A DNA stretch of 11,912 nt from Gammaproteobacteria bacterium (GTDB lineage Bacteria; Pseudomonadota; Gammaproteobacteria; JABXHR01): positions 1-11,912 of the forward strand of contig JABXHR010000283.1 in NCBI GenBank assembly GCA_013373515.1, in the 5' to 3' direction. The notes beneath the pieces were generated by a model that was given only the letters and a program-made list of their open reading frames with translations, was not told the DNA's origin and made no database searches. The position numbers and the translations under genes were made by a program. This document shows positions 88 through 11,386 of the stretch, piece after piece (the first letter of the stretch is position 1; each line of letters starts with the position of its first letter).

Positions 88-1098
88 TTAGTCATTTTGA
101 ACCACTACTGTTTGCTCTATTGCACCAAAAATCGACCGACCCTCATCGTCTAGCATTTCGATTTTGACGGTATCACCGGCGGCCATAAATGGCGTCTTTG
201 GCCCGCCGTGTAAGATTGTTTCGACTGTACGCACCTCGGCTAGGCAGGAATAACCCAAGCCTCCCTCAGAAATCGGCTTGCCCGGCCCGCCATCAGCGTC
301 TTTGTTGGAGATGGTGCCAGACCCAATAATACTGCCCGCGCATAGTGGCCGCGTCTTGGCGGCGTGCGCCACCAGCTGCGCCATATCAAACACCATATCG
401 ACATGGGTTTGCGTGCGTCCCAGAGGCGAACCATTCAAATCAACCGCCATCGTGCCCTGAAGTTTGCGGCCATCCCAGCGTGCGCCTAGCGCGTCTGGCG
501 TCACAGCCACCGGCGAAAATGCGCTGGAGGGCTTGGATTGGAAAAAACCAAACCCCTTGGCGAGTTCACCTGGAATCAACCCACGCAGCGAAACGTCATT
601 AACCAACATCAGCAGACGAATCGCCTCAGCGGCTTGCTCCACTTTTGCGCCCATCGGCACATCGTCGACAATCACAGCAATTTCCGCTTCCATATCAATT
701 CCAAGCCCATCGATGGGCGGAACCGAGATGTGATCGCGCGGTCCAATAAAGCTGTCACTTCCGCCCTGATACATCAGTGGATCAGTCCAGAAGGTCTCGG
801 GCATCTCAGCGCCACGGGCCTTGCGAACCAACTCCACATGATTGACATAGGCTGAGCCGTCGGCCCACTGATAGGCACGCGGCAATGGTGAATGGCAATT
901 GGACGCAGCAAAGGCTTCACCGAGTGTGTCATCATCGGCCAATGACTCTGACAATGCGTACAATGCTGGCGCAATTGTTGCCCAATCATCCAATGCCGAT
1001 TGTAGGGTGCCGTCAAACGGCAAATAGCGACTGAGATCATCACTGACCACCGCCAATTGGCCGTCTCGGGTACCGTCCTTGATCGTGGCCAGTTTCAT
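88..1098 (-). CDS. Fumarylacetoacetate hydrolase (FAH) family protein, probable terminal hydrolase of the homogentisate pathway
   Basis: 336-aa ORF with FAH-fold hallmarks (GPRDHISVP..., metal-binding acidic cluster EAEIAVIV, glycine-rich [10 protein letters not shown]...GGPGKP). Its start ATG (1098..1096) overlaps the hmgA stop TGA (1097..1095) as ATGA, indicating translational coupling with hmgA. At 336 aa it is shorter than canonical fumarylacetoacetase (~430 aa), like the FAH-family gene found in Vibrio-type hmgA operons. Confidence 0.8.
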
Positions 1099-2405
1099 GC
1101 TTTTACTCCAGGTGTTCCATCAAATTTCTTTTCTAATCCCGACCAACAATCGGCGTAGTTTTTCTGCAAGAGCGGACTCTCGGCCGCAAAGCGCGTTGGA
1201 TGTTGCGGGAAACGGGTTTCAAACATAAAAGCCAGTGTGTCACGCATTCGTTCGGGCTTCAGTTCTGCATTGCTAGCGCCTTCAAATGAAGCATGATCTG
1301 GCCCGTGCGGGAACATCATATTGTGCAAGCTCATGCCGCCTGGGCTGAAACCATCGGGTTTGGCATCGTATTGCCCTTTTATGAGACCCATAAATTCCGA
1401 CATGATGTTTCGGTGAAACCAAGGCGGCCGGAAGCTGTGTTCCGCAACAGACCAACGCTCCGGGAAAATCACAAAATCGATATTAGCAGTGCCTTCCGTG
1501 TCAGTCGGCGAAGTCAGCACCGTAAAAATCGACGGATCAGGGTGGTCAAACAGCACCGCACCGACCGGTGAGAATGTCCTTAAGTCATACTTGTAAGGAG
1601 CATAATTGCCGTGCCAGGCGACCACATCTAGCGGGCTATGACCGATTTTGGTCGCGTAAAAGCGCCCGCACCATTTGTAAACCAGCGTGTGCGGTGTATC
1701 GAGATCCTCATAGGCAGCAACAGGGGTTTTAAAGTCGCGCGGGTTCGCAAGACAGTTGGCTCCGATCGGTCCACGATTGGGCAAGGTCAGCTTTGCACCG
1801 TAGTTTTCCAATACATAGCCAATGGCACACTCATCTAGCACTTTGACCTTCACGCCCATGCCACGAGGCAACACGGCAAGTTCGTTCGGCTCAACTTGAA
1901 TCCGACCCAGCTCCGTGTGTAATTCCAATCGCCCCTGCTGCGGAAGTATCAAAAGCTCGCCGTCAGCGTTGATCAAAACGCGATCTTCCATCGAGCAATT
2001 GCAGCTATACATCCCCGCTGTCATGCCCGAGTGCGTGTTGACGTCGCCCGCCGTGGTGATCGTGTAGAGGCCATCGATGAAATCCACTTCCTCAGTTGGT
2101 GCTGGGAATGGATTCCAACGATATTGGCCAAACGCCAGCACGTGCTGCTCAGCATAAGGCGCCGTTTTCCAGTGTGGAACCGTCACCTCGCTAAACGAAA
2201 CGCCATGACGCACTGAGGGACGGATGCGATACAACCACGAACGCTCGTTTTGCCCATGTGGCGCGGTAAACGGTGAACCACTCAGCTGTTCGGCATACAG
2301 GCCATAGTTACACTTTTGCGGAGAATTTTGACCTTGCGGCAAGGCGTCGGGCAATGATTCGGTTTCGAAGTCGTTGCCAAAACCGGGCATGTATTGCAAT
2401 GACAT
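1095..2405 (-). CDS. hmgA: Homogentisate 1,2-dioxygenase
   Basis: Full-length homology signature of Hmg[32 protein letters not shown]-terminus, cupin-fold core, ~436 aa. The ORF track starts at a TTG (2423). The ATG at 2405..2403 gives the canonical MSLQYM start and is preferred. The stop overlaps the FAH gene start. Confidence 0.9.
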
Positions 2406-2417
2406 GATTGAATTTCG

Positions 2418-2458
2418 TTTCAAATGAACAGATTTACGTATATTCTGTTCATTTGAAA
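2418..2458. promoter_or_regulatory. Perfect 15-bp inverted repeat (TTTCAAATGAACAGA-N11-TCTGTTCATTTGAAA), candidate operator in the divergent hmgA / MarR promoter region
   Basis: Read directly from the sequence: arms 2418..2432 and 2444..2458 are exact reverse complements, separated by tttacgtatat. It lies 13 bp upstream of the hmgA ATG and 25 bp upstream of the MarR ATG, and overlaps plausible -35/-10 elements for both divergent promoters. This is the typical geometry of a dimeric wHTH repressor site. Confidence 0.5.
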
Positions 2459-2482
2459 TGAATTACAAGTTTTTTTGACGCC

Positions 2483-2929
2483 ATGACGAGCCAAATTTTT
2501 GATCTAGAACAGTACTTGCCCTACCTCGCCGCGCGGTTTGCAGGCCGTATCAGCCGTGCGCTGGCCGCTCGTTATCAGCAGCAATTTGACCTTAGTATTG
2601 CCGATTGGCGAATCATTGCTAACTTGTCGCAATTCGACGAAGTCTCGGTCAAGGACATCGTGGCAAGAGTGGAACTTGATCGCGTCAAAGTGACTCGTGC
2701 CGTGCAACAGTTGGTGCAGCGAGGGCTGTTGAGTAAGCACATCAATGCAGGAGATCGTCGACTGGTAAAATTGTCACTTACCCCGCAGGGCGTGGCGCTA
2801 TTTCAGGCACTGAAAACCATTGCGATACAGTTCGAACAAGAGGCGCTTTACGGCCTCACTGACGATGAAAAGCATACGCTAACCCACCTATTTTCCAAGA
2901 TTGAGAACAACTTACGTGAGAATCGATAA
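2483..2929 (+). CDS. MarR-family winged-helix transcriptional regulator, probable local regulator of hmgA
   Basis: 148 aa, the MarR size class. It has a central wHTH pattern (SVKDIVARVELDRVKVTRAVQQLVQRGLL...DRRLVKLSLTPQG). It is divergent from hmgA, with the palindromic operator candidate between the two genes. Confidence 0.8.
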   Translation: MTSQIFDLEQYLPYLAARFAGRISRALAARYQQQFDLSIADWRIIANLSQFDEVSVKDIVARVELDRVKVTRAVQQLVQRGLLSKHINAGDRRLVKLSLTPQGVALFQALKTIAIQFEQEALYGLTDDEKHTLTHLFSKIENNLRENR

Positions 2930-3189
2930 ATTAGAATGGCTATTCGTTAACCATTTTTAAGAAAATTTGAATTAATTTAATTTATCCAACACGCAACTTT
3001 CCATTCGGCAACATCATCAAAATCAAAGATCACGAAGCATGATCCCCACTAACATCACCAAAATATTGCAATTTACGCCGTTTCCTAATAAAAGTTAGCG
3101 TAAACTATCAGCTAATAGCACTGTCTTTTCTCCGTTATTGACGTGAAACATTTATTTGCTGCTATGACAACCGCCCCTTTTCACCGCAA
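2930..3189 (+). promoter_or_regulatory. AT-rich 260-bp intergenic region upstream of the GGDEF-EAL gene (promoter region; weak hairpin+T-run after the MarR gene)
   Basis: No ORFs here; AT-rich. A weak 5-bp hairpin AATGG-N11-CCATT followed by TTTTT at 2935..2958 could be a feeble terminator for the MarR gene. TTGACG at 3138..3143 is followed by TATGAC at 3163..3168 after a 19-nt spacer; this is only a weak sigma70-like match. The region is much longer than needed for a simple promoter, which suggests regulatory input. Confidence 0.3.
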
Positions 3190-5160
3190 GTGGATATGCG
3201 CTGGATGAATACACGAGTAGATGACCACGATCTCACCAAAACTTCCCTTTCCAGAAGGCTGACGCTGATCATCGCCCCCATCCTGCTTTCAATCAGTTTG
3301 ATCGCGGGTTACTTGGTGGGTCTCTACAGCCAGAAGCTAGAGTACCAACGGCTTACCGAATCTCGCCAAGATCAGACCGACAATATCACGCTATTGATCA
3401 CTGATCAGGTGAGCTATTACCAGTACCATGTGGCAAGTGGCATCGCCGAAACACTGCGTCGTGCAGGCGAAGTGACTGCGCTCGAATTTATCGACAACGA
3501 CGATGTCAGGCGGGTCGCGGTAGGAGATACTGACGACCGTCAAACCGCTACGACGTCCATTGAGCTTCTCAATCGCCAACAAAGCTTTGTCGGCACCTTG
3601 TACCTCTGGTTTCCAGAAATCGATGTGGTACTCGACTGGCGCTGGGTCGTGATTCCACTGAGCAGCGCCGCTCTATTGTTGCTGTGTCTAGTGGCAGCGA
3701 TGGCTTTTATTTGGCGCAAACAGGTTGGCACACCGCTTAACCTAATTTACAACGCGATGCGCCAGACTCGCGGTGGTCGCGAAGTCCGCGTTTCCCTGCA
3801 ACGGGACGATGAGCTGGGCTACATCGCTGACAACTACAACCGAATGCTGGACCGCCTACAAGAGCATCGACGTGAAATAGAAGCGATGGCACATTACGAC
3901 CATCTAACCGGTGCAAGCTCACAGGCTTATTTTATTCAACGCCTTGAAACATTGATTAACTCGAAGAACACGCAGTCATACGAATTGTATTTTATTGATA
4001 TCAATCGATTTAAATGGATTAATGACACCTATGGCCATAGTGCAGGTGATCTTGTGATTAAAGCGTTCTATGAGCGTATCAAGGCGGCACTACCGCCAGA
4101 CACCCTGATAAGTCGCTTCGGTGGTGACGAGTTCGTATTTGTCATTCCGACCTCCGAGCTCGATCACCAGAGCGTTATAGCCAAGATTCAACTCGCTCAA
4201 AGCGCCGAATTCAAGATCAAGGGTGATATCGGGCTAAAGTTGACCGCCAGCATTGGTCACGCCAACTACCCTCAAGATGCCGGCGATTTTGAGCTACTAC
4301 TTCAAAAAGCCGACGCGGCCATGTATATCAATAAGCGACTAAGTGGCAACTGGAATAATTTAGACGCAACCACCCAGTACAGCTCACTCAATCGAGAAAA
4401 CCAACAGATATTCGCCATTTTGCAACACGGCAATTTCGAAGATGTGGTCACCATCGAATACCAACCCATCATTAATATCGACACCAATGAATTGAGCGCG
4501 CTTGAAGCGTTGCTGCGCTTGCACATCGACGGCAAAGTCATTCGCAATATATCGACCGAAACCATCATTCATTTGGCGGAGAAATCTGGTCTGATCAAAA
4601 ATATTGATCGCCAAGTCAGGCACGCAGTTTACACCCAAATTCAGCAATGGATGGCCGCAGGTATCTCAACGCCGCCAGTTCACCTCAACATCTCACCCGC
4701 CCTGCTCTCGGCAAGTCACTTCAAGCAGGAGCTAATCAAAGACACTGAGCAATTTGGTTTGAAAAACCGTAAAATTGTGCTTGAAATTACCGAGACTGTT
4801 GCGGTCTCGACAGATGCCCTGCCATTGATACAAAGTCTTAGACAAAGCGGTTTTCAGGTGGCATTGGATGATTTTGGCAAAGGCTACTCCTCACTTTCAA
4901 CACTTGCCAAGCTGCCTATCGATATCTTGAAACTAGACAAAGAGTTTTTCCAGTGTACAGAGGATCAAAAAGAGACCATTGCGCTGATTCGCTGCGTAGT
5001 TGATATGGCAAACGCTGTCGGTTGCAGGCTCATTGCAGAAGGGGTCGAACATAAACAAATTCACGAGGCGCTCGTTGCGCTAAATTGTCAATATGTACAG
5101 GGTAATTATTACGATTTCCCGATGTCTGCGGACGATATCAAAACCAAATATTTCACCTAG
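3190..5160 (+). CDS. Membrane-anchored sensor diguanylate cyclase/phosphodiesterase (periplasmic domain - TM - HAMP - GGDEF - EAL)
   Basis: 656-aa ORF with a GTG start at 3190; alternative ATGs at 3196 and 3205, no strong Shine-Dalgarno. Two TM helices (aa ~24-45 and ~153-175) flank a ~107-aa periplasmic region. HAMP-like linker at aa ~176-235. GGDEF domain with intact RFGGDEF (nt 4120..4134) and DINRFKWINDTYGH. EAL domain with EALLR (nt 4504..), LEITE, DDFGKGYSSL, KLDKEFF, AEGVEHK and QGNYY; all catalytic motifs are present. Confidence 0.9.
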   Translation: MDMRWMNTRVDDHDLTKTSLSRRLTLIIAPILLSISLIAGYLVGLYSQKLEYQRLTESRQDQTDNITLLITDQVSYYQYHVASGIAETLRRAGEVTALEFIDNDDVRRVAVGDTDDRQTATTSIELLNRQQSFVGTLYLWFPEIDVVLDWRWVVIPLSSAALLLLCLVAAMAFIWRKQVGTPLNLIYNAMRQTRGGREVRVSLQRDDELGYIADNYNRMLDRLQEHRREIEAMAHYDHLTGASSQAYFIQRLETLINSKNTQSYELYFIDINRFKWINDTYGHSAGDLVIKAFYERIKAALPPDTLISRFGGDEFVFVIPTSELDHQSVIAKIQLAQSAEFKIKGDIGLKLTASIGHANYPQDAGDFELLLQKADAAMYINKRLSGNWNNLDATTQYSSLNRENQQIFAILQHGNFEDVVTIEYQPIINIDTNELSALEALLRLHIDGKVIRNISTETIIHLAEKSGLIKNIDRQVRHAVYTQIQQWMAAGISTPPVHLNISPALLSASHFKQELIKDTEQFGLKNRKIVLEITETVAVSTDALPLIQSLRQSGFQVALDDFGKGYSSLSTLAKLPIDILKLDKEFFQCTEDQKETIALIRCVVDMANAVGCRLIAEGVEHKQIHEALVALNCQYVQGNYYDFPMSADDIKTKYFT

Positions 5161-5178
5161 CAACTCTATTTGCATATC

Positions 5179-5207
5179 TTGCATTACCAATCGAAACAGC
5201 GAATAAT
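5179..5207 (+). promoter_or_regulatory. Predicted sigma70 promoter for the SPFH gene (-35 TTGCAT, 17-nt spacer, -10 AATAAT)
   Basis: -35 TTGCAT at 5179..5184 (a second TTGCAT at 5170..5175), a 17-nt spacer, then -10 AATAAT at 5202..5207. This gives a TSS near 5214, an AAAGGAA Shine-Dalgarno at 5227..5233 and a GTG start at 5238. Pattern match only. Confidence 0.35.
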
Positions 5208-5237
5208 TATTGCGTTTAGCAACACAAAAGGAACATT

Positions 5238-6641
5238 GTGGAATTCATTATTTTGGGCGCGATACTGATCGCAGCCGGCTATCTGATTAACAACAAAATC
5301 CAACAACTTAACAACCTCCCTGTAAAACCATTATTAACTTTAATCGGCGCGGCTGCAGTGGGCTGGGGCGTTTTCACCGGCGCATTTTTCTATGCAGAGC
5401 CCGGTTACAAATACCATGTGCGCACCATTACGGGTAATGAAAGCATGGTCAAGGATGTTGGCTATAACATATACCTATTCGGTCGATATAACGCGTGGAA
5501 AAACGCCATGACGGTACAAGCCACCAAAGAAGGCTCCGGTACAGTTGTCGCCGAAGAAGAAAGCGCATCGACCAGTGCCAACTTGGGGCCGCAGACGCTG
5601 GTATTTTTGGATCAGGTCGACGCCGAAGTCACCGCGACCGCGCGTTTCTTGCTGCCCGATGACGAAACCAGCTTTTTACTGCTGGCCCGTCAATTTCGAT
5701 CACCAGAAAATTTGCTGCGCACAGAACTAATTCCTGCCTTTCAAGAAACGCTTGGCTCGACGGCATCTTTGCTGTCCGCAGAAGAGTATTTCTCGGGTGG
5801 ACGAACCCAATTCAATACAGAGTTCCAAAACCAAATGGAGCAAGGCATCTACAATGTCCGCCGCCGCGAGACCATGCAGCGCGTGTCACGTTCGCAAACC
5901 TCGAGCGCCAATGCAAGCTTAGGTATGGATCAACAGGATTTTGGCGATGACCAGCAAGTGGTATTCGTGGTAGAAAAAATCCTAGATGCCAACGGCCAAC
6001 CGCTTCGCAAGTCTCAGAACTTCTCGAAGTTTGGCATTTCTGTGGTGTCGGCGCGTATTACCGATGTCAATCCCAATAGCCGCTTCCGTGAACGTATGGA
6101 GCAAAAGCAAGCCGCAGCCGCAGCCAGAGCAGTTGCCCGCGAACAACGTGTTCAAGAAGAAGAGCAACGCCTCCTGGCCATCACCCGCGGCGAACGCGAA
6201 GTGGCCGAGCGTCAAGCCCAAGCCAAGGTGATCCAAATTGAGCAAACCACGCAAGCAGAGACTGAAAAACAGCTTGTAATTACCCAAGCACGTCAACGCA
6301 ACGAACAAGCCGAGATCGAACGTCAAACTGCGCTAATCAACCTTGAGCGTGCCAAGGTCGATGCCGAATCCAAACGGGTGGCTGCAGATGCTGCTGCCTA
6401 TGAAAAGCGTGCCATTTTGGAAGCGGATAATGCCCTACAGCAAAAACTCGAGGCATATGTGGAAGCGCAAAAATTCTGGGCGGATGCTTTTGCCAAGCGC
6501 AATGTTCCCACTCAAGTCTTTGGCGCGAACCAGTCAGGTGTTGGACAGGACAGTGATATCCAAACCTTTATGGATATCATGACCATGAAAGCGGCCAAAG
6601 ACCTATCTTTCGATCCCTCAATCGAATCGATTGGCAATTAA
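5238..6641 (+). CDS. Flotillin-like SPFH/band-7 domain membrane protein with a long C-terminal coiled coil
   Basis: 467-aa ORF with a GTG start and a good Shine-Dalgarno. Two N-terminal hydrophobic helices are followed by an SPFH-type core (…FGISVVSARITDVNPNSRFRERMEQKQAAAAARAVAREQ matches the conserved C-terminal SPFH block). Then comes ~130 aa of E/Q/R/A-rich heptad-like sequence, resembling the EA-repeat coiled coil of YqiK-type bacterial flotillins. Confidence 0.6.
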   Translation: MEFIILGAILIAAGYLINNKIQQLNNLPVKPLLTLIGAAAVGWGVFTGAFFYAEPGYKYHVRTITGNESMVKDVGYNIYLFGRYNAWKNAMTVQATKEGSGTVVAEEESASTSANLGPQTLVFLDQVDAEVTATARFLLPDDETSFLLLARQFRSPENLLRTELIPAFQETLGSTASLLSAEEYFSGGRTQFNTEFQNQMEQGIYNVRRRETMQRVSRSQTSSANASLGMDQQDFGDDQQVVFVVEKILDANGQPLRKSQNFSKFGISVVSARITDVNPNSRFRERMEQKQAAAAARAVAREQRVQEEEQRLLAITRGEREVAERQAQAKVIQIEQTTQAETEKQLVITQARQRNEQAEIERQTALINLERAKVDAESKRVAADAAAYEKRAILEADNALQQKLEAYVEAQKFWADAFAKRNVPTQVFGANQSGVGQDSDIQTFMDIMTMKAAKDLSFDPSIESIGN

Positions 6642-6839
6642 TGTGGTCGAACGGCGTGCACTCGGGCACGCTTGGGAGCTTTTAAAAGCCCCTCGCATCT
6701 TTCGCGGGGGTACTTGAGGGGTCGACCCTACGACGCTCTGAGCGAGGAAACGTTCGATGCGTCGTTGGGTACTAACGTGGGCAATGATAATCGAGTCCAC
6801 CAACCGCCGAGCGACTTGGAACGCACAAGGCGTAGCCCC
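6642..6839. other. GC-rich, hairpin/palindrome-dense convergent intergenic region (candidate structured RNA, bidirectional terminator cluster or decayed repeat element)
   Basis: No credible ORF; several short overlapping ORFs in different frames are typical of non-coding GC-rich DNA. The region contains consecutive stable hairpins and perfect palindromes:
- GCGTGC-ACTCGG-GCACGC (6654..6671);
- GCTTTTAAAAGC (6678..6689) inside GGGAGCTTTTAAAAGCCCC;
- CCCC(T)CGC-atctttc-GCGGGGG (6689..6710);
- GGGTCGACCC (6719..6728);
- ACGACGC-N22-GCGTCGT (6730..6765) with an inner GAAA-containing hairpin;
- AACGTT;
- CCTTAAGG (6838..6845).
GGGTACT recurs at 6708 and 6767. Confidence 0.3.
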
Positions 6840-7289
6840 TTAAGGCCACCGATAGGCCAAACCAGCGCACAGGCTAAAAAACGCCGCCCAATAAGGCAAA
6901 GCGCCTGACAGTAACAACTCAAAAATCACTTCTGATGTGGTCCATGTGCTGCCAGTCATTGCCATGTATGACCAACAGAGGCCGTAACTTAGCCACAAAA
7001 TACTGACATAAACGCCAATCACTGCAATCAAAGTTCGCCCAGTCATCCCGCTGATTGCGCGACTAAGCACTGCAACACCAATGCTCACCATCAGTGCCAG
7101 CGCAATTGAAACCCACAAATGTTCTGCGATAACCCCCTCGTAAACCGAAAGTCTGCTCAGTGCAGTCACCTCAGCCATGTGCGGCCAAAGACTCCCCCAA
7201 AAGAAACTCAAGCCACCGAGCCAAATGGCCCAAAAACTCACCAGTAAGACACGCATCTGCCACCTGGTCGCTGACCTAAATACACGCAC
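6840..7289 (-). CDS. Small hydrophobic inner-membrane protein, 4 predicted TM helices, unknown function
   Basis: 149-aa ORF from a GTG at 7289. A more likely ATG start at 7256 (MRVLLVSF...) is preceded by AGGTGG. Four hydrophobic stretches of 18-25 aa (LLVSFWAIWLGGLSFFWGSLW; LWVSIALALMVSIGVAVL; LIAVIGVYVSILWLSYGLCWSYMAM; VIFELLLSGALPYWAAFFSLCAGLAY). No recognisable family. Confidence 0.5.
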   Translation of the reverse strand: MRVFRSATRWQMRVLLVSFWAIWLGGLSFFWGSLWPHMAEVTALSRLSVYEGVIAEHLWVSIALALMVSIGVAVLSRAISGMTGRTLIAVIGVYVSILWLSYGLCWSYMAMTGSTWTTSEVIFELLLSGALPYWAAFFSLCAGLAYRWP

Positions 7290-7444
7290 TCACCCTTCGC
7301 ACCGCCGGTGAAAATTTTGATGAATAAAATATGAATTTCAAAAGAATGTTCTTCTGCGGCCGATAGCACCGATGATGATACCGCCATGGAGGCGGAGGCC
7401 AACGCCACAATGTGACTGTGGCAGGTCGTGAACAGGAATCGGTT
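7290..7444. promoter_or_regulatory. Divergent promoter region between the 4-TM membrane protein gene and the large protease/lipoprotein ORF
   Basis: An AT-rich block at 7308..7355 (gtgaaaattttgatgaataaaatatgaatttcaaaagaatgttcttc) contains TTGATG -35-like and TATGAA/AATAAA -10-like hexamers. An AGGAA Shine-Dalgarno at 7433..7437 sits 7 nt before the ATG at 7445. Confidence 0.3.
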
Positions 7445-10400
7445 ATGAATATTGTCAATCTCCTCTGCACTCGTTTATCTCGTTACCGCCTATTGGCTTG
7501 GTTGGCGGCAGCCCTCCCAGTGGCCGGTATTTCAATGGAATATTACCTGCCCGAGCAGCCCGAATCTGCAATCGCTGCGACGCTGCCCCTAGGTGACGTC
7601 ACGCTCGCATCGAGCTACCACGTCTATCAAGATCAAAAAATCACGCAAGGTGATATCTTGCTGCCCAAAGCCGGACTGAACGCAAGAAGCGCCATTTTTG
7701 ACAATCGCAGTCTATGGCAGAACGGCATTGTGCCTTATGTCATTGCCGAAGGTGTCAGCGACGGATTACGTGCGCGATTAACCGATGCCATTCAACATTG
7801 GCACGATGCGACGGGATTGCGCTTCGAAGCACATACCGACACTCATAACCTCGGCGCATTTGTCGCCGTCTATGGCGCGGATATTTGCGCCTCTAATATC
7901 GGCAAAGTGGGCACGGTAAATTACCTTCTGCTCTCTGAGTTCTGCTCAACGGGGTCTATCATCCACGAGCTGGGCCATACAGCAGGCCTACTCCACGAAC
8001 ATATGCGGTCTGATCGAGACGCCTACATTCAGATCAATACAGAGAACATCCGACCGCAAGCGCTGCACAATTTCACCGAGACTGCGCCGATCGGATTTCG
8101 CAATTTTGGTGACTACGACTTCGACAGCATAATGCACTACACAGCGACCGCGTTTTCAGCCAACGGCTCACCGACGATCACGGCTAGATATGCAAACGTC
8201 GAATTCGGGCAGCGAGATCACTTAAGTGCGCTAGACCGCGCCACGGTCAACCTAATGTACGGCAGCGATATCGCAATTCAAGCCACACTGAGCAATCAAA
8301 ATTCGACTCTGCCAACGCTAACCCTTACCGTTCACAATCAAGGGCCAATGGGTGTCAACGATATCGATCTTTCAATGGCCAGTACAGAGGGAATCGCCGC
8401 ACCACGGTTTACTGCCGGAAGCTGCGCCGAACAGTCAAAATGTGTTGTACCGCACTTGGACGCAGGCGAGCAAATTGAACTGATAGTACGCCTGTATAGC
8501 AGGGATATGGGCACGGATCACGTGAAAGTGACGGCCAGTAGTCAGGTTCACGACCACGACCTGAGCAACAACATGCACACGCTGCCTGTGGCGATCAACC
8601 ATATTTCACACCCGCCGATGCAAAACGACGAATTGACCAGTGTGGCGGGCGGCAGCCTGAGTGGATTCACGGCATTGGTATTGTCAATGCTTACACTGGT
8701 TACACGACAAACTCGACAGCGACCTCAGACGAAGTTACCCATCATCACAGTGGGCCCCCTGGCCGCCTTGTTGATGGTGTTAACGGGTTGCGAGCAAGGC
8801 TCAACTGCCATCGAAATCCGCGACCTTCAAAGCGATACAGCCTCCGTTAGTCAAGATGCCATCACACGCAATCTTTGGGCAAGCACCATACCCTTGGAGG
8901 CGGCCGACTCCATCCGACTATTAAAGACCACCGTTCGTGATCGACGGGGAGTCCACCACAATTGGGACGATGTCAGCGAGCGGATCGACACCAACCAGGC
9001 CACGATGAGCTTGCCTGCCTTCGAAAGCGATGAGGAGTTCTTAGGGGAAGTTTATCGATTGGAGGCAGATTTTGACGGCTACGTGATCGGACGCGTTCTT
9101 TACCAAGATCAAAATACGCCAAAAACACTTGCGCTAGAAATTTTGCCGATCCACGACCTTATTTATCAGTCAACACGCTGGACGGCACAGCGCACTGTTA
9201 GCCAAATCGAAGATGAAAAAGTCGACCAAATGGTCAATCTCGGCCTGAGCTTGATCAAGCGGATCGACTCGATTTGGCGCACATTGACGCTTGGGAAAAC
9301 ACATGCCTACACGCCGTTTGACGCCGATGCCGCCAAGCTCATTGACTTTAATAAGCCCATCGTTCTATCGCATTACGCCGAGCGGGTACACAAACAACAG
9401 GACAGAGGGCCAATAGTCACTGAACTGTTAAGCATGCACAGCTACGTGCCAGATCGCCGGCTCGACGACATTCTGCAAATTGGCAAGCAAGTGATTCTGA
9501 GCAACCAAAGTGCCTGCACCTGGTTAACCCAACGCTATCAGAGCGGATTCTTCAATATCAGCGATCAAGACCTCTGCCTAGATCCTGCAGACTTAATAGT
9601 GCACAATCACAACGCGATCGTCCTGCGCGTCCAACCCAATGTGCTGCAGCTCTACACGCTCAGCAACGAACGACTGATTTATGAAGATCGCCTGACTTTG
9701 GATGTGCCGATTTTAGATGTTGCCGCCTATGACAGTGGCTTCGCCATACTCGGCGACGATAAGGTGCTTTATTACTATCGCACCGACGGGGCCAAGTTTG
9801 AGTCAATCGACAGCATAGCAGTCAAATTTGGTCCGGTTGGATTACAAGTGTTTGATAACCAGCTGATGGTCTATGGCGTCCAAAATCATCTTTATCACCT
9901 GCAGGACAATCTGCTCGTTCATCAAAAGAAATTGCTCACCAAGGGTATCGTCGCTCAGGGCGGTGTAAGTGGAAAAGACTTTGTTATTTTGCACGGCAAG
10001 ACACGTCTATTGGTTTACCGACAAGCGGCAGACGGACTGCTGGCATACACAGAGCACCTAACTTGGGCTCCCATCTACTTCAGTCCCCCGCGCTCCGATC
10101 TTACCCTCGACGATGTGGTACTGATCGATGACCAACTTCATGGCATCTTCAGCTGGGCGTTCCACACAGGAGATGGGACACCAAGCGCAAGGCATTACTA
10201 CGATACGGCACACGTGATTCACGACGACAGTGGGCTACATGTCGATACCGCCTACACCCCCGTCAAAATTGGCGATCGAAAAAACAATGCCAAACTCAAA
10301 ATGGTGGGCACTACATTGATGATGGTACACAGTGACGGCCCACCGATTTCCCTTGGGACGAACTTTATCGAAGTATTGGAAAGTGCCCACAAATTCAATT

Positions 10401-11386
10401 ATCTAACCGACATCGAGCTGTTCGACACCAACGCAGCGAAAAATAGCGCGGTAGCGCTTGGCAAGGTGCCCGGTCAAGTCGACGCCTACTTGCGCGACAA
10501 TCTGTACATCGTCGAAGGTCATGACCGCTTGTATTACTACTACGCCCCGCTTGAAGACAGTGCAGTCTACCAAGTCGATCAAGGGATCGATTGGATGGGC
10601 AAGGTGGGTGATCAGTATTGGCTGACCTCCATGGACGGTCGATTGATACGGCTGACGCATGATAGTGACAACCAACAGTTTATTGAAACGCACAATACAA
10701 CCACCAAGCCAATCGAGTCAGCGGCTTCCGGCGATCATTTTGTAGCATGGAATCTCTATGGCAGCGGGCTGCATCTGAGCGCGCTTGAAGCAGATACACC
10801 ACAGAACGCCACGATTGCACTCGACATGGACAACATCAGCCATTACAAAGTTCACCGCAACCAAATCGCGGTCGGCGGTTTAGGTGAGTTGGCCGTATGG
10901 GAAATCGCACCCGATCTTGAGCCAACGCTACGCTACCGTGCAAACACCGCCAGTGTGATCGACGACATTGTGTGGCTGGACGACAACACCATCGCGTACA
11001 CAGACGGTGCACTCGGCGTCAAAGTGCTCTCGATCGATGGCCAATCCGTCCAAACCCTGTCCAGTATTGAAACCTACAGCACCGTCCGACAACTGGCCTA
11101 CGCGGATGGCTACCTTGCATTGGCTGACGAATCAAATACTCTGCTGGTCTATGACCTCAAAGACCCCAGCAAACCCCAAAATATCGGCGTGCTCGCACTG
11201 GTGCCAGAAATAAAGTCGATCGCGTTCAATCAAGTGCCCGTGCCGGGTACAGACTTAGTCAACCCCTATCTACAGCTAAGTCTTAGCGGCAGTACGCTCT
11301 ATCAGCTTTTTGTGCCACAACGACAGCTTGCATGTGATGGTCTTGCCGCGCTGGAGGATGGTCGACGGCATTGTAGGGTGAATTAG
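7412..11386 (+). CDS. Large secreted multidomain protein: signal peptide, astacin-family (M12A) zinc metalloprotease, CARDB/DUF11-like domain, GlyGly-CTERM-like segment, lipoprotein-type signal/lipobox, then an LVIVD-repeat beta-propeller-like region. Apparent in-frame fusion of two genes.
   Basis: Continuous 1324-codon ORF. The likely real start is the ATG at 7445 (MNIVNLLCTRLSRYRLLAWLAAALPVAGIS is a signal peptide) with an AGGAA Shine-Dalgarno.
- Astacin signature HELGHTAGLLHEHMRSDRD at nt 7964..8020 (HExxHxxGxxHExxRxDRD) and Met-turn SIMHY at 8126..8140.
- DUF11/CARDB-like beta domain, aa ~290-400.
- aa 412-439, AGGSLSGFTALVLSMLTLVTRQTRQRPQ (nt 8645..8728), matches the GlyGly-CTERM architecture.
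- aa 441-460, KLPIITVGPLAALLMVLTGC (nt 8732..8791), is a lipoprotein signal peptide with an LTGC lipobox.
- The C-terminal ~860 aa carry LVIVD-type repeats (e.g. VRQLAYADGYLALADESNTLLVYDLKDPSKPQNIGVLAL at nt ~11084..11203) and other YYY/propeller-like repeats. Confidence 0.85.
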   Translation: MTVAGREQESVMNIVNLLCTRLSRYRLLAWLAAALPVAGISMEYYLPEQPESAIAATLPLGDVTLASSYHVYQDQKITQGDILLPKAGLNARSAIFDNRSLWQNGIVPYVIAEGVSDGLRARLTDAIQHWHDATGLRFEAHTDTHNLGAFVAVYGADICASNIGKVGTVNYLLLSEFCSTGSIIHELGHTAGLLHEHMRSDRDAYIQINTENIRPQALHNFTETAPIGFRNFGDYDFDSIMHYTATAFSANGSPTITARYANVEFGQRDHLSALDRATVNLMYGSDIAIQATLSNQNSTLPTLTLTVHNQGPMGVNDIDLSMASTEGIAAPRFTAGSCAEQSKCVVPHLDAGEQIELIVRLYSRDMGTDHVKVTASSQVHDHDLSNNMHTLPVAINHISHPPMQNDELTSVAGGSLSGFTALVLSMLTLVTRQTRQRPQTKLPIITVGPLAALLMVLTGCEQGSTAIEIRDLQSDTASVSQDAITRNLWASTIPLEAADSIRLLKTTVRDRRGVHHNWDDVSERIDTNQATMSLPAFESDEEFLGEVYRLEADFDGYVIGRVLYQDQNTPKTLALEILPIHDLIYQSTRWTAQRTVSQIEDEKVDQMVNLGLSLIKRIDSIWRTLTLGKTHAYTPFDADAAKLIDFNKPIVLSHYAERVHKQQDRGPIVTELLSMHSYVPDRRLDDILQIGKQVILSNQSACTWLTQRYQSGFFNISDQDLCLDPADLIVHNHNAIVLRVQPNVLQLYTLSNERLIYEDRLTLDVPILDVAAYDSGFAILGDDKVLYYYRTDGAKFESIDSIAVKFGPVGLQVFDNQLMVYGVQNHLYHLQDNLLVHQKKLLTKGIVAQGGVSGKDFVILHGKTRLLVYRQAADGLLAYTEHLTWAPIYFSPPRSDLTLDDVVLIDDQLHGIFSWAFHTGDGTPSARHYYDTAHVIHDDSGLHVDTAYTPVKIGDRKNNAKLKMVGTTLMMVHSDGPPISLGTNFIEVLESAHKFNYLTDIELFDTNAAKNSAVALGKVPGQVDAYLRDNLYIVEGHDRLYYYYAPLEDSAVYQVDQGIDWMGKVGDQYWLTSMDGRLIRLTHDSDNQQFIETHNTTTKPIESAASGDHFVAWNLYGSGLHLSALEADTPQNATIALDMDNISHYKVHRNQIAVGGLGELAVWEIAPDLEPTLRYRANTASVIDDIVWLDDNTIAYTDGALGVKVLSIDGQSVQTLSSIETYSTVRQLAYADGYLALADESNTLLVYDLKDPSKPQNIGVLALVPEIKSIAFNQVPVPGTDLVNPYLQLSLSGSTLYQLFVPQRQLACDGLAALEDGRRHCRVN
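8645..8791 (+). other. Internal junction carrying two sorting signals: GlyGly-CTERM-like motif (8645..8728) directly followed by a lipoprotein signal peptide with lipobox LTGC (8732..8791)
   Basis: Read directly from the translation: GGS, a hydrophobic helix and the basic cluster TRQTRQR, then KLPIITVGPLAALLMVLTGC-EQG. No stop codon separates the two. A GTG at 8750 (V447) is a possible but Shine-Dalgarno-less internal start. The ACG AAG at 8729..8734 would read ATG AAG (MKLPII...) with one substitution. Confidence 0.5.

Follow-up and report, generated by a model that had tools for sequence, protein, structure and literature searches.

An astacin protease and a predicted lipoprotein share one reading frame

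In the window, the whole 11,912-nucleotide stretch of DNA analysed here, a single reading frame on the forward strand, which carries all of the features described below, is free of stop codons across 7412..11386 (1,324 codons, from GTG 7412 to TAG 11384-11386). The likely start codon is ATG 7445 rather than the GTG that opens the mechanically defined ORF. ATG 7445 is preceded by an AGGA-type Shine-Dalgarno (SD) sequence (-4.3 kcal/mol), and the ortholog in a second genome (L002, described below) begins at the same methionine. The resulting precursor of 1,313 amino acids (7445..11386) is identical to the deposited protein NVK32775.1, and the NCBI metagenome-assembled genome (MAG) and the Logan assembly yield the same protein, both probably from the same reads. 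A sequence-only reading of this DNA had described one uninterrupted ORF encoding a protease followed by a lipoprotein; the frame and the protease domains bear this out.

The protease half opens with a putative N-terminal Sec-type signal peptide (7445..7534), recognizable from its basic n-region and the h-region LLAWLAAALPVAGI (nt 7490-7531), and a counterpart is present in L002. The motif QGDILLP (7646..7666) in the pro-peptide is the "aspartate switch" of astacin zymogens, whose role is well established for this family; homologs P0002-P0004, P0008, P0150, and P0156 contain xGDI(L/I)L upstream of the catalytic domain. The astacin (M12A) catalytic domain (7715..8260, aa 102-283; Pfam PF01400, E = 1.2e-42) includes the zinc motif HELGHTAGLLHEH (7964-8002) and the Met-turn SIMHY (8126-8140), both of which aligned with PDB chains of BMP-1, TLL1, and astacin that matched the domain with E values of 1e-27 to 1e-20. 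A DUF11/CLIPPER β-sandwich domain follows (8267..8581; Pfam PF01345, E = 4e-6 to 2e-5). This pro-astacin and DUF11 part is intact in the window gene. The same module stands alone in P0151, a 499-residue protein with lpxB as the next gene, in which astacin, DUF11, a Gly-rich stretch, and a hydrophobic segment are followed by an RRR tail that ends the protein.

The predicted mature lipoprotein module (8789..11383, 865 aa) consists of a polar tether after Cys460, a homolog-free region, and a β-propeller. In both alleles, the tether is a poorly conserved, S/T/E/D-rich stretch typical of lipoproteins. Residues from about 485 to 1040 had no detectable homologs; searched against 5.8 G proteins, the module recovered itself alone, and neither Pfam nor the PDB yielded a match to it. 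With phmmer, we obtained 141 matches, every one to 10544..11311 (best E = 1.8e-11), where LVIVD-like blades such as DGYLALADESNTLLVYDLKDPSKPQNIG (nt 11105-11188) form a repeat register visible in the alignment. Strong PF08309 LVIVD repeats were present in seven of the eight matches that we scanned, the remaining one (P0010) being a WD40 protein. An AF2 model of the propeller (pLDDT 66-94, model residues 50-300) resembled β-propellers, including BamB, in Foldseek (E about 1e-8). The LVIVD propeller named in the sequence-only reading is therefore supported as a distant relationship, by phmmer matches to LVIVD proteins and a predicted β-propeller fold, although the Pfam LVIVD model did not report the C-terminal region.

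Two hydrophobic segments and a lipobox form the junction

Between the two halves lie the back-to-back signals (nt 8645..8791), which match their earlier description. Hydrophobic segment 1 with its GlyGly-CTERM-like motif, AGGSLSGFTALVLSMLTLV (aa 412-430, 8645..8701), is a proposed stop-transfer anchor. It is followed by the basic loop TRQTRQRPQTK (aa 431-441, 8702..8734), which has four positive and no acidic residues and is predicted to be cytoplasmic, and by the internal lipoprotein-type signal LPIITVGPLAALLMVLTGC (aa 442-460, 8735..8791), in which the h-region LPIITVGPLAALLMV leads to the lipobox L-T-G-C, ending at Cys460 (8789-8791). Only these two segments exceed a mean Kyte-Doolittle value of 1.5 (19-residue window) in the ORF, and their order fits the positive-inside rule, which would make the junction a hairpin with its second limb oriented like a signal peptide. 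Beyond the N-terminal signal peptide, where C19 lies, Cys460 alone among the cysteines has no partner nearby. The remaining ones in the mature region are closely spaced in pairs (159/178, 338/344 in the DUF11 domain, 702/722, and 1308/1321), of which the last three, including both cysteines of 338/344, are invariant in L002 as far as it covers them.

Compared with domain models, as the sequence-only reading had proposed, the two segments fared unevenly. Segment 1 had been called a textbook GlyGly-CTERM, which goes too far. It has the Gly-Gly and hydrophobic layout, but TIGR03501 (GlyGly-CTERM) did not report the window segment even at E ≤ 10; the isolated L002 counterpart, IAGGGSLGWLGMMGLAIAAVAKWL, scored 15.8 bits, 0.3 above the cutoff of 15.5, and the segment lies inside the precursor rather than at the extreme C terminus that defines this signal. 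The isolated segment 2 of L002 weakly matched three lipoprotein models (NlpD, YgdI/YgdR, and NF038215) in their N-terminal signal regions (E = 0.03-0.09), the level at which a canonical Lpp signal matches unrelated lipoprotein families. A curated model from NCBIfam, NF058595 ("lipo-invert putative C-terminal anchoring domain"), matches the whole junction in both alleles, at the same positions of the model (31-76 and 32-86), and this match needs both segments and the cysteine, all in this order. Since its scores (15.5-18.7 bits) are far under the cutoff of 37, and one shuffle within segments that preserved LTGC reached 16.5 bits, the match is one of architecture and is no sign of homology.

A diverged allele keeps the junction in frame

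The second genome, GCA_030425885.1, contains a syntenic allele, L002, with the shared gene order GGDEF-EAL, Band_7, astacin. Its junction is likewise a single frame with no stop codon (...IAGGGSLGWLGMMGLAIAAVAKWLSSRRRKIGKIVCMAMLALWISGC, followed directly by DSETT...). Across a 50-aa junction window, the alleles are 23% identical, with a dN of 1.19 and a 3-codon indel, yet both keep AGG, hydrophobic segments 1 and 2, the basic loop (SSRRRKIGK in L002), and the lipobox [LI][TS]GC, in which G-C is invariant. The L002 internal signal, IVCMAMLALWISGC, has a hydrophobic run of only about 13 residues, a usual length for the h-region of a signal peptide and on the short side for a segment that spans the membrane permanently. 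In a collection of 168 fetched proteins, most of them large and secreted and together 154,959 residues long, the window precursor alone has an internal basic-hydrophobic-lipobox signal. Because the junction feature set is unique in this collection and conserved in a diverged allele, it is beyond chance. The ortholog alignment suggested by the sequence-only reading thus recovered the same one-frame architecture in the one ortholog found.

Both flanking modules are under purifying selection. Against L002, the astacin part has a dN of 0.19 and aa 461-944 have values of 0.15-0.35; dS is 1.7-2.8 or saturated, giving a dN/dS of roughly 0.07-0.1. A 56-nt deficit in the L002 DUF11 region puts the astacin part of that allele in a different frame from the junction, leaving the window's gene as the only intact example. 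We found no further relatives in any collection searched, and the two-module arrangement is known to us from two related genomes only. The locus is much more diverged between these genomes than are the neighboring genes.

Alternative explanations for the joined modules

Could the fusion be artefactual, or have arisen by mutation very recently in this one MAG? In favor, six of nine codons in 8705-8728 (CGA, CAA, CAG) are one substitution short of a stop, and the sequence comes from a metagenome-assembled genome. An error of sequencing or assembly is nevertheless unsupported because the diverged L002 allele, from an independent genome, keeps the same unbroken junction. The agreement of the NCBI and Logan assemblies points the same way, though probably from the same reads, as do GC and codon-position composition, which are alike on either side of the junction. 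Moreover, no frame contains a stop codon across 8700-8760, and two genes could therefore not be recovered by any single indel. The first possibility raised by the sequence-only reading, that a stop or start was recently lost, is likewise unsupported: the same allele has the unbroken junction, with R-K-I-G-K where an ancestral ATG at 8729 had been suggested. We regard error and fresh stop-codon loss alike as scarcely credible. Separate translation of the lipoprotein with its own N-terminal signal, from a start near 8729-8750, is only slightly less improbable. The codon pair ACG AAG at 8729 is one substitution from ATG AAG, and GTG 8750 and several TTG, ATG, and GTG codons lie in frame inside hydrophobic segment 2. 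However, neither position has an SD-like sequence: the energies at 8729 and 8750 (-0.2 and -0.5 kcal/mol) are no stronger than the background within the ORF (mean -1.8), the median for annotated starts being -4.3, and a start at 8750 would drop the basic n-region. In L002, no ATG, GTG, or TTG lies between hydrophobic segment 1 and the basic loop, and the only available starts, of the MAMLALWISGC type, lack any n-region. A usable internal start is therefore lacking in both alleles. The sequence-only interpretation is thus partly supported: of its three alternatives the evidence favors the last, a two-module precursor, shorn of the initiation at GTG 8750 that it had included.

Two other explanations accept the gene as real. 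The signals could be relics of an anchored-protease gene and a lipoprotein gene that fused in the common ancestor of the alleles and are tolerated with no selected role, at a locus that may be decaying. The completeness of the N-terminal module and its stand-alone existence in P0151, the frame-breaking deficit in L002, the unusual divergence of the locus, and the tiny family all fit such a history. But unselected segments, loop, and lipobox would not all outlast a turnover of ~77% of residues with the frame intact, a random run of 50 codons is stop-free only about 9% of the time (estimated as (61/64)^50), and both modules show a dN/dS of roughly 0.1 or below; we consider a relic distinctly unlikely. 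A better case, though still an unlikely one in our judgment, can be made for a protein that stays whole, its permanent inner-membrane hairpin tethering a periplasmic protease to a periplasmic propeller, with L-T-G-C unused or Cys460 lipidated but uncut. Hairpin anchors are common, and two hydrophobic segments around a basic loop are most simply read in this way; the 18 residues of the window's segment 2 are long enough for a permanent membrane span, and the name of NF058595 says "anchoring," not cleavage. Against it stand the short hydrophobic run of the L002 segment, the resemblance of that segment in isolation to real lipoprotein signal peptides, the invariance of G-C within an otherwise poorly conserved stretch, and the lone unpaired state of Cys460.

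A model for processing of the precursor

We give about an even chance to the view that this is one genuine gene whose product, an envelope precursor of two modules, is split after export, most likely by the ordinary lipoprotein-processing machinery. According to this model, the N-terminal signal peptide would direct Sec export of pro-astacin and DUF11 until the Gly-Gly hydrophobic segment (aa 412-430) halts transfer, with the basic loop (aa 431-441) remaining cytoplasmic. Residues 442-459 would then re-enter the membrane in signal-peptide orientation, allowing export of the remaining 864 residues. Lgt would diacylglycerylate the lipobox at Cys460, and signal peptidase II (LspA) would cut between Gly459 and Cys460, so that one chain would give two products in a 1:1 ratio. 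One would be an astacin zymogen anchored in the inner membrane through its C-terminal hairpin; the other, a lipid-anchored β-propeller protein, might speculatively serve the protease as a partner, inhibitor, or docking factor.

The hairpin could later be removed by a rhomboid or rhombosortase cut at the Gly-Gly motif, by analogy with VesB, which is cleaved by such an enzyme at its Gly-Gly motif; there is no rhomboid gene within 10 kb on either side of the locus. Internal prolipoprotein signals made by engineering have been examined in E. coli and B. subtilis (Hayashi et al., 1985, J Biol Chem 260:5753; Coleman et al., 1985, Cell 43:351; both cited in PMC2114505), where they were reportedly modified and processed. 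Since the anchor tail of the protease runs directly into a lipoprotein signal and propeller, a single precursor probably gives rise to two proteins of the envelope.

Organization of the gene

The open reading frame (ORF) at 7412..11386 (+) of the window is free of interruptions. Its likely start codon, ATG 7445, has an AGGA-type ribosome-binding site upstream, and the resulting 1313-aa product is identical to NVK32775.1, 'MAG: hypothetical protein HWE20_17355 [Gammaproteobacteria bacterium]'. An identical protein is predicted on a 73-kb contig in the Logan assembly of SRR11434631; the same reads probably lie behind this assembly and the NCBI assembly of the window's contig. Residues are numbered from the beginning of the ORF.

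Within the ORF, strong hydrophobicity over 19 residues is confined to aa 412-430 and 442-460. The sequence-only reading had given the letters of this junction correctly: AGGSLSGFTALVLSMLTLV (aa 412-430; segment 1), TRQTRQRPQTK (431-441) and LPIITVGPLAALLMVLTGC (442-460; segment 2), together nt 8645-8791. No stop codon occurs in any reading frame across 8700-8760, and GC content and codon-position composition are equal on either side of the junction. The gene is real and unusual. Its parts (an astacin, a GlyGly-CTERM-like anchor, a lipoprotein signal and an LVIVD-type propeller) are already known, and no description of this natural arrangement was found in the literature searched. The window holds the only intact example of the fused gene.

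The N-terminal module is of a type that also exists by itself

The Pfam astacin model PF01400 (peptidase M12A) matched aa 102-283 at 146 bits (cutoff 22.5, E 1.2e-42), and PDB chains of astacin, BMP-1 and meprin matched with E values down to 9e-27. The zinc motif HExxHxxGxxHE is present as HELGHTAGLLHEH (aa 185-197) and the Met-turn (SxMHY) as SIMHY (aa 239-243). An xGDILL motif common to other bacterial astacins lies upstream of the catalytic domain, and a DUF11/CLIPPER domain (Pfam) follows it. Judged by these motifs and matches, the N-terminal module is an intact pro-astacin.

A stand-alone homolog, P0151 (499 aa, 35% identity, 5391-6890 of locus L003), consists of an astacin domain, DUF11, a Gly-rich stretch, a hydrophobic segment and RRR, and then ends (GGGGS...LLALVLMLLARRR). 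Its tail runs from a long Gly/Ser/Asp/Thr-rich repeat (SGDTGGGGNSGDTGSGSNSGDTGSGGNSGGGGS) into the hydrophobic segment and RRR, and is GlyGly-CTERM-like, yet scores under the cutoff of the TIGR03501 model. Since P0151 ends at this point, the upstream module makes up a whole type of protein by itself, and the fused gene is probably the derived state. The gene adjoining that of P0151, directly downstream, is lpxB rather than a lipoprotein gene, in an lpxB/lpxD/fabZ/bamA neighbourhood.

A strongly diverged allele has the same open junction

The two halves of the protein, which the sequence-only reading had advised searching separately, gave different results. The N-terminal half led to P0150 (74% identity), the astacin part of a related allele on L002, a 7.3-kb contig of GCA_030425885.1 that has the same junction; the C-terminal half found itself only in a word-indexed database of 5.8 billion proteins. 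The gene order in L002 equals that of the window: GGDEF-EAL, Band_7, astacin. In a tblastn comparison of the window protein with L002, aa 5-314 and aa 338-944 aligned in different frames, the latter stretch reaching the contig end. The frame break is a 56-nt deficit within the DUF11 domain, away from the junction: L002 has 13 nt at ~5504-5518 where the window has 69 (8354-8422). Gene prediction splits the L002 gene into an astacin of 319 aa and a fragment of 597 aa, and the downstream frame is open to the contig end. The break may reflect true decay or a recent disruption of the gene, or else a fault in the assembly; a repeat-mediated deletion was rejected as its origin, as no flanking direct repeat was found.

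The L002 junction is without a stop (...PPVQQDELASIAGGGSLGWLGMMGLAIAAVAKWLSSRRRKIGKIVCMAMLALWISGCDSETT...). In it, a Gly-Gly motif leads into a hydrophobic segment; RRRK and a hydrophobic run of 13 residues come next, followed by the lipobox I-S-G-C and then a polar tail. Identity between the two alleles is 23% over these 50 residues, with a dN of 1.19 and a 3-codon indel, and the AGG and the lipobox G-C are invariant between them. The flanking modules are conserved far better than the junction, with dN/dS of ~0.07-0.1 (dN 0.19 and dS 2.6 for the astacin, aa 12-314; dN 0.15-0.35 and dS 1.7-2.8, or too saturated to compute, for aa 461-944). Drift in sequence combined with strictly kept physical features is the look of signal and anchor segments under selection.

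These data bear on the explanations that had been proposed for the fused frame, namely loss of the stop and start between adjacent genes, a sequencing or assembly error, or a genuine precursor, possibly with internal initiation. Because the second, strongly diverged allele is equally open, both an error in this metagenome-assembled genome (MAG) and a fresh loss of a stop codon in it are excluded. The imagined ancestral ATG AAG likewise has no counterpart in L002, which shows R-K-I-G-K there. We also rejected internal initiation. At ACG 8729 and GTG 8750 the Shine-Dalgarno energies are -0.2 and -0.5 kcal/mol, whereas 19 annotated starts have a median of -4.3 and the background averages -1.8; both candidates are devoid of Shine-Dalgarno complementarity. 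In L002, ATG, GTG and TTG are all absent between hydrophobic segment 1 and the basic loop. Of the earlier proposals, the one supported is a genuine two-module precursor, the uninterrupted junction being kept in one ortholog, the diverged L002 allele.

The C-terminal module ends in a distant relative of LVIVD propellers

Pfam, NCBIfam and PDB sequence searches with aa 461-1324 returned no match, and a whole-ORF query of the word-indexed protein database returned only distant astacin-domain matches. Searched exhaustively with phmmer, a library of 1.84 billion representatives yielded 141 weak matches (best E 1.8e-11), all at ORF residues ~1045-1275, and nothing for the junction or aa 461-1040. 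The query protein itself is absent from this library (0 matches below 1e-30), which is present in the 5.8-billion clustered database, so the lack of relatives there is slightly weaker than it appears. Seven of the eight phmmer matches that we scanned have 4-20 LVIVD repeats; the remaining one is a WD40 protein. An alignment of the C-terminal blades (A2) showed the LVIVD repeat register, and an AlphaFold2 model built on it reached pLDDT 66-94 over 250 residues; a single-sequence model of the C-terminal half was unusable (pLDDT 35). With the A2-based model, Foldseek returned beta-propellers (E ~1e-8) including BamB, which is itself a lipoprotein. The earlier assignment of an LVIVD propeller is therefore right in kind, by phmmer, A2, AlphaFold2 and Foldseek, although Pfam's own LVIVD model, PF08309, does not report the protein (no match at E<=10 with the C-terminal thirds or at E<=0.1 with the whole protein).

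The two alleles are older than their genomic frame

The word-indexed database, the 1.84-billion library, GTDB genomes and JGI metagenomes yielded no further relative, either of the downstream module or of the fused architecture. The GTDB and JGI scans were pattern-plus-tblastn searches that used single queries at first and later the alignment of the two alleles (A1). An exact search for the Band_7 neighbour, which is nearly invariant, brought up no further strains.

We compared the divergence of the gene (window 7445-11386) with that of its neighbours (2483-6641) against L002 (1-7330). Relative to GCA_030425885.1, Band_7 is 98.7% identical in amino acids (dS 0.45), GGDEF-EAL is 89% identical (dS 0.83) and the dS of MarR is 0.64. 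For the astacin-lipoprotein gene, amino acid identity is 63-74% and dS is at least 1.8 or saturated. With a dS so far above that of the neighbours, the two alleles are much older than the genomic frame they sit in. A pattern of this kind is frequent among surface or secreted proteins, through diversifying selection or allele exchange; for this locus it suggests that alleles have been exchanged or have diversified over a long time.

Upstream of the gene and divergent from it, the window carries a 138/149-aa hydrophobic, membrane-like ORF (6840-7289, -) that has no match in Pfam or NCBIfam. L002 lacks a counterpart of it: the intergenic gap there measures only 490 nt, of which just the ~72 nt next to the start codon can be aligned (74% identity). 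The GGDEF-EAL and Band_7/SPFH proteins are encoded immediately upstream of the gene. One side of the locus carries a homogentisate-degradation cluster (a fumarylacetoacetate hydrolase family protein, hmgA and a divergent MarR regulator), and the other side a TauE-family exporter followed by a sulfatase and its FGE-type maturase (window 88-2929; locus L001, 14916-17376). No functional link between these neighbours and the protease is evident.

Segment 1 resembles a GlyGly-CTERM signal away from the C terminus

Secreted proteases of the GlyGly-CTERM type, such as Vibrio cholerae VesB, carry an N-terminal signal peptide and end, after an unstructured linker, in a Gly-rich motif, a hydrophobic helix and a basic cluster (PMC3237569, PMC6219818, PMC13393428); 0-5 residues follow the basic cluster, and there is no second transmembrane segment (PMC3237569). 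Both alleles have this tripartite layout, as AGGS + LSGFTALVLSMLTLV + TRQTRQRPQTK in the window and AGGGS + LGWLGMMGLAIAAVAKWL + SSRRRK in L002, and share with VesB-type signals its location behind a linker at the end of a secreted protease. The L002 segment (GGGSLGWLG...) scored 15.8 bits against TIGR03501 when isolated and 13.8 in an 82-aa context (cutoff 15.5), and the window segment gave no match even at E<=10. The core of the window's segment is rich in S/T/V/M, whereas that of TIGR03501 members is rich in Leu and Gly. Further, ~883-884 residues, including a second hydrophobic segment, follow the basic cluster (last basic residue K441) of the window protein, while TIGR03501 members have no other transmembrane segment. 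As the defining C-terminal position is lacking, we do not file the segment as a GlyGly-CTERM member: the layout that had been called textbook is present, whereas in the window neither the position nor a TIGR03501 match accompanies it.

Segment 1 may nevertheless work like a GlyGly-CTERM signal, by analogy with other rhomboid substrates, which have at least 40 residues past the helix. As a speculation, cleavage by LspA followed by loss of segment 2 could expose a proper tail. No rhomboid gene was found in the ~26 kb that we read of the 73-kb contig.

An internal lipobox may split the precursor

Both alleles then present a lipoprotein-type signal, with a basic n-region, an h-region and a lipobox ([LVI][ASTVI][GAS]C) with a conserved Cys: K441 + LPIITVGPLAALLMV + LTGC in the window and RRRKIGK + IVCMAMLALW + ISGC in L002. 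The signal begins at about aa 431 and has no internal start, so it is not N-terminal. The L002 h-region appears signal-peptide-like and, by its length, too short for a stable membrane span. The L002 segment alone gave weak matches to the N-terminal signal regions of the NlpD, YgdI/YgdR and NF038215 models, a level at which the canonical Lpp signal also matches unrelated lipoprotein families. Cysteines of the mature regions are closely paired (159/178, 338/344, 702/722, 1308/1321), and Cys460 is without a nearby partner. A variable polar tether follows the Cys in both alleles.

The order of elements (signal peptide, exported domains, segment 1, basic loop, segment 2, Cys) points to a stop-transfer event, a cytoplasmic loop and re-insertion. 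Segment 1 would act as the stop-transfer segment, with the basic loop in the cytoplasm, and segment 2 would be re-inserted in the orientation of a signal peptide. Lgt and LspA would then act at Gly459|Cys460, yielding a hairpin-anchored pro-astacin and a separate beta-propeller lipoprotein. We regard this cleavage as the most likely outcome, with the chances about evenly balanced; it is favoured by the invariant G-C, the short L002 h-region, the matches to lipoprotein models, the unpaired Cys460 and the polar tether. The broader proposal is somewhat less secure, and we put it forward tentatively: that the gene encodes a natural polyprotein cut by Lgt/LspA at an internal lipobox, its topology set by the adjacent upstream stop-transfer segment of the sorting-signal type, to give a rhomboid-releasable astacin and a propeller lipoprotein partner in a 1:1 ratio at the same membrane site.

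Cys460 is followed by Glu in the window (8792-8794), and the corresponding residue of L002 is Asp. An Asp at position +2 is, in E. coli, the inner-membrane retention (Lol-avoidance) signal, which Glu is not. Given the E. coli rules, the two alleles might sort the lipoprotein differently.

Significance

Annotation pipelines and researchers treat C-terminal sorting signals and lipoprotein signals as strictly terminal. If the proposed processing is true, both can work back to back within a single chain that yields two envelope proteins with different anchors, and signal peptidase II joins the short list of enzymes that split bacterial polyproteins. A GlyGly-CTERM-like signal would work, or be unmasked by processing, away from the end of the primary product, and the gene would be a natural test of whether rhombosortase-type signals require a free C terminus. 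It would also be a warning that predictors confined to the N and C termini overlook such proteins. The gene also brings an astacin protease together with a beta-propeller lipoprotein that is not otherwise known, the two being putative functional partners. Its general importance hinges on more examples, as the case consists of two alleles from Gammaproteobacteria that are uncultured or poorly described.

Comparison with known systems

The top NCBIfam model for the junction of both alleles, and the only one reported for that of the window, was NF058595, the 'lipo-invert putative C-terminal anchoring domain' (invert_tail). The scores, 16.7-18.7 bits for the window and 15.5-17.5 for L002, are below the cutoff of 37. 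The match covers positions 31-76/86 of 113, corresponding in both alleles, and requires both hydrophobic segments and the Cys, in order. It was lost in all four whole-peptide shuffles and upon a segment swap, and was kept in one of five within-segment shuffles, the one retaining LTGC; Lpp did not match. These controls led us to reject homology and to read the match as shared architecture. The two also differ in what follows: the model has ~30-40 positions past the matched region, whereas the window's protein has 864 residues after the Cys. A publication describing the NF058595 family was not found in the literature searched.

With bacterial lipoprotein signals handled by Lgt, LspA and Lnt, the window's signal shares a basic n-region, an h-region of 13-18 residues, [LI][TS]GC with its invariant Cys, and a polar tether. 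The typical signal is N-terminal, whereas this one lies ~430 residues into the chain, right behind another membrane segment. In the literature searched, no account turned up of an internal lipoprotein signal that occurs naturally. The modification and processing of engineered prolipoprotein signals placed inside a polypeptide were examined in E. coli and B. subtilis in 1985 (Hayashi et al., J Biol Chem 260:5753; Coleman et al., Cell 43:351; both cited in PMC2114505). Such signals were reportedly modified and processed. Those were laboratory constructs and this is a natural gene, in which, unlike in the constructs, an upstream stop-transfer segment would set the topology.

The P0151 cluster has the N-terminal module of the window's protein, and BamB-like and LVIVD proteins are likewise known; in each of these the module is a separate gene product, unlike in the window's gene. 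For a bacterial chain that is divided at an internal signal into two membrane or periplasmic proteins, a counterpart is Bradyrhizobium japonicum FbcH, a cytochrome b/c1 polyprotein split at a signal peptide that lies inside the chain, behind transmembrane segments. Type I signal peptidase cuts FbcH into two subunits of one known complex, whereas the signal in the window's putative precursor is of the lipoprotein (type II) kind.
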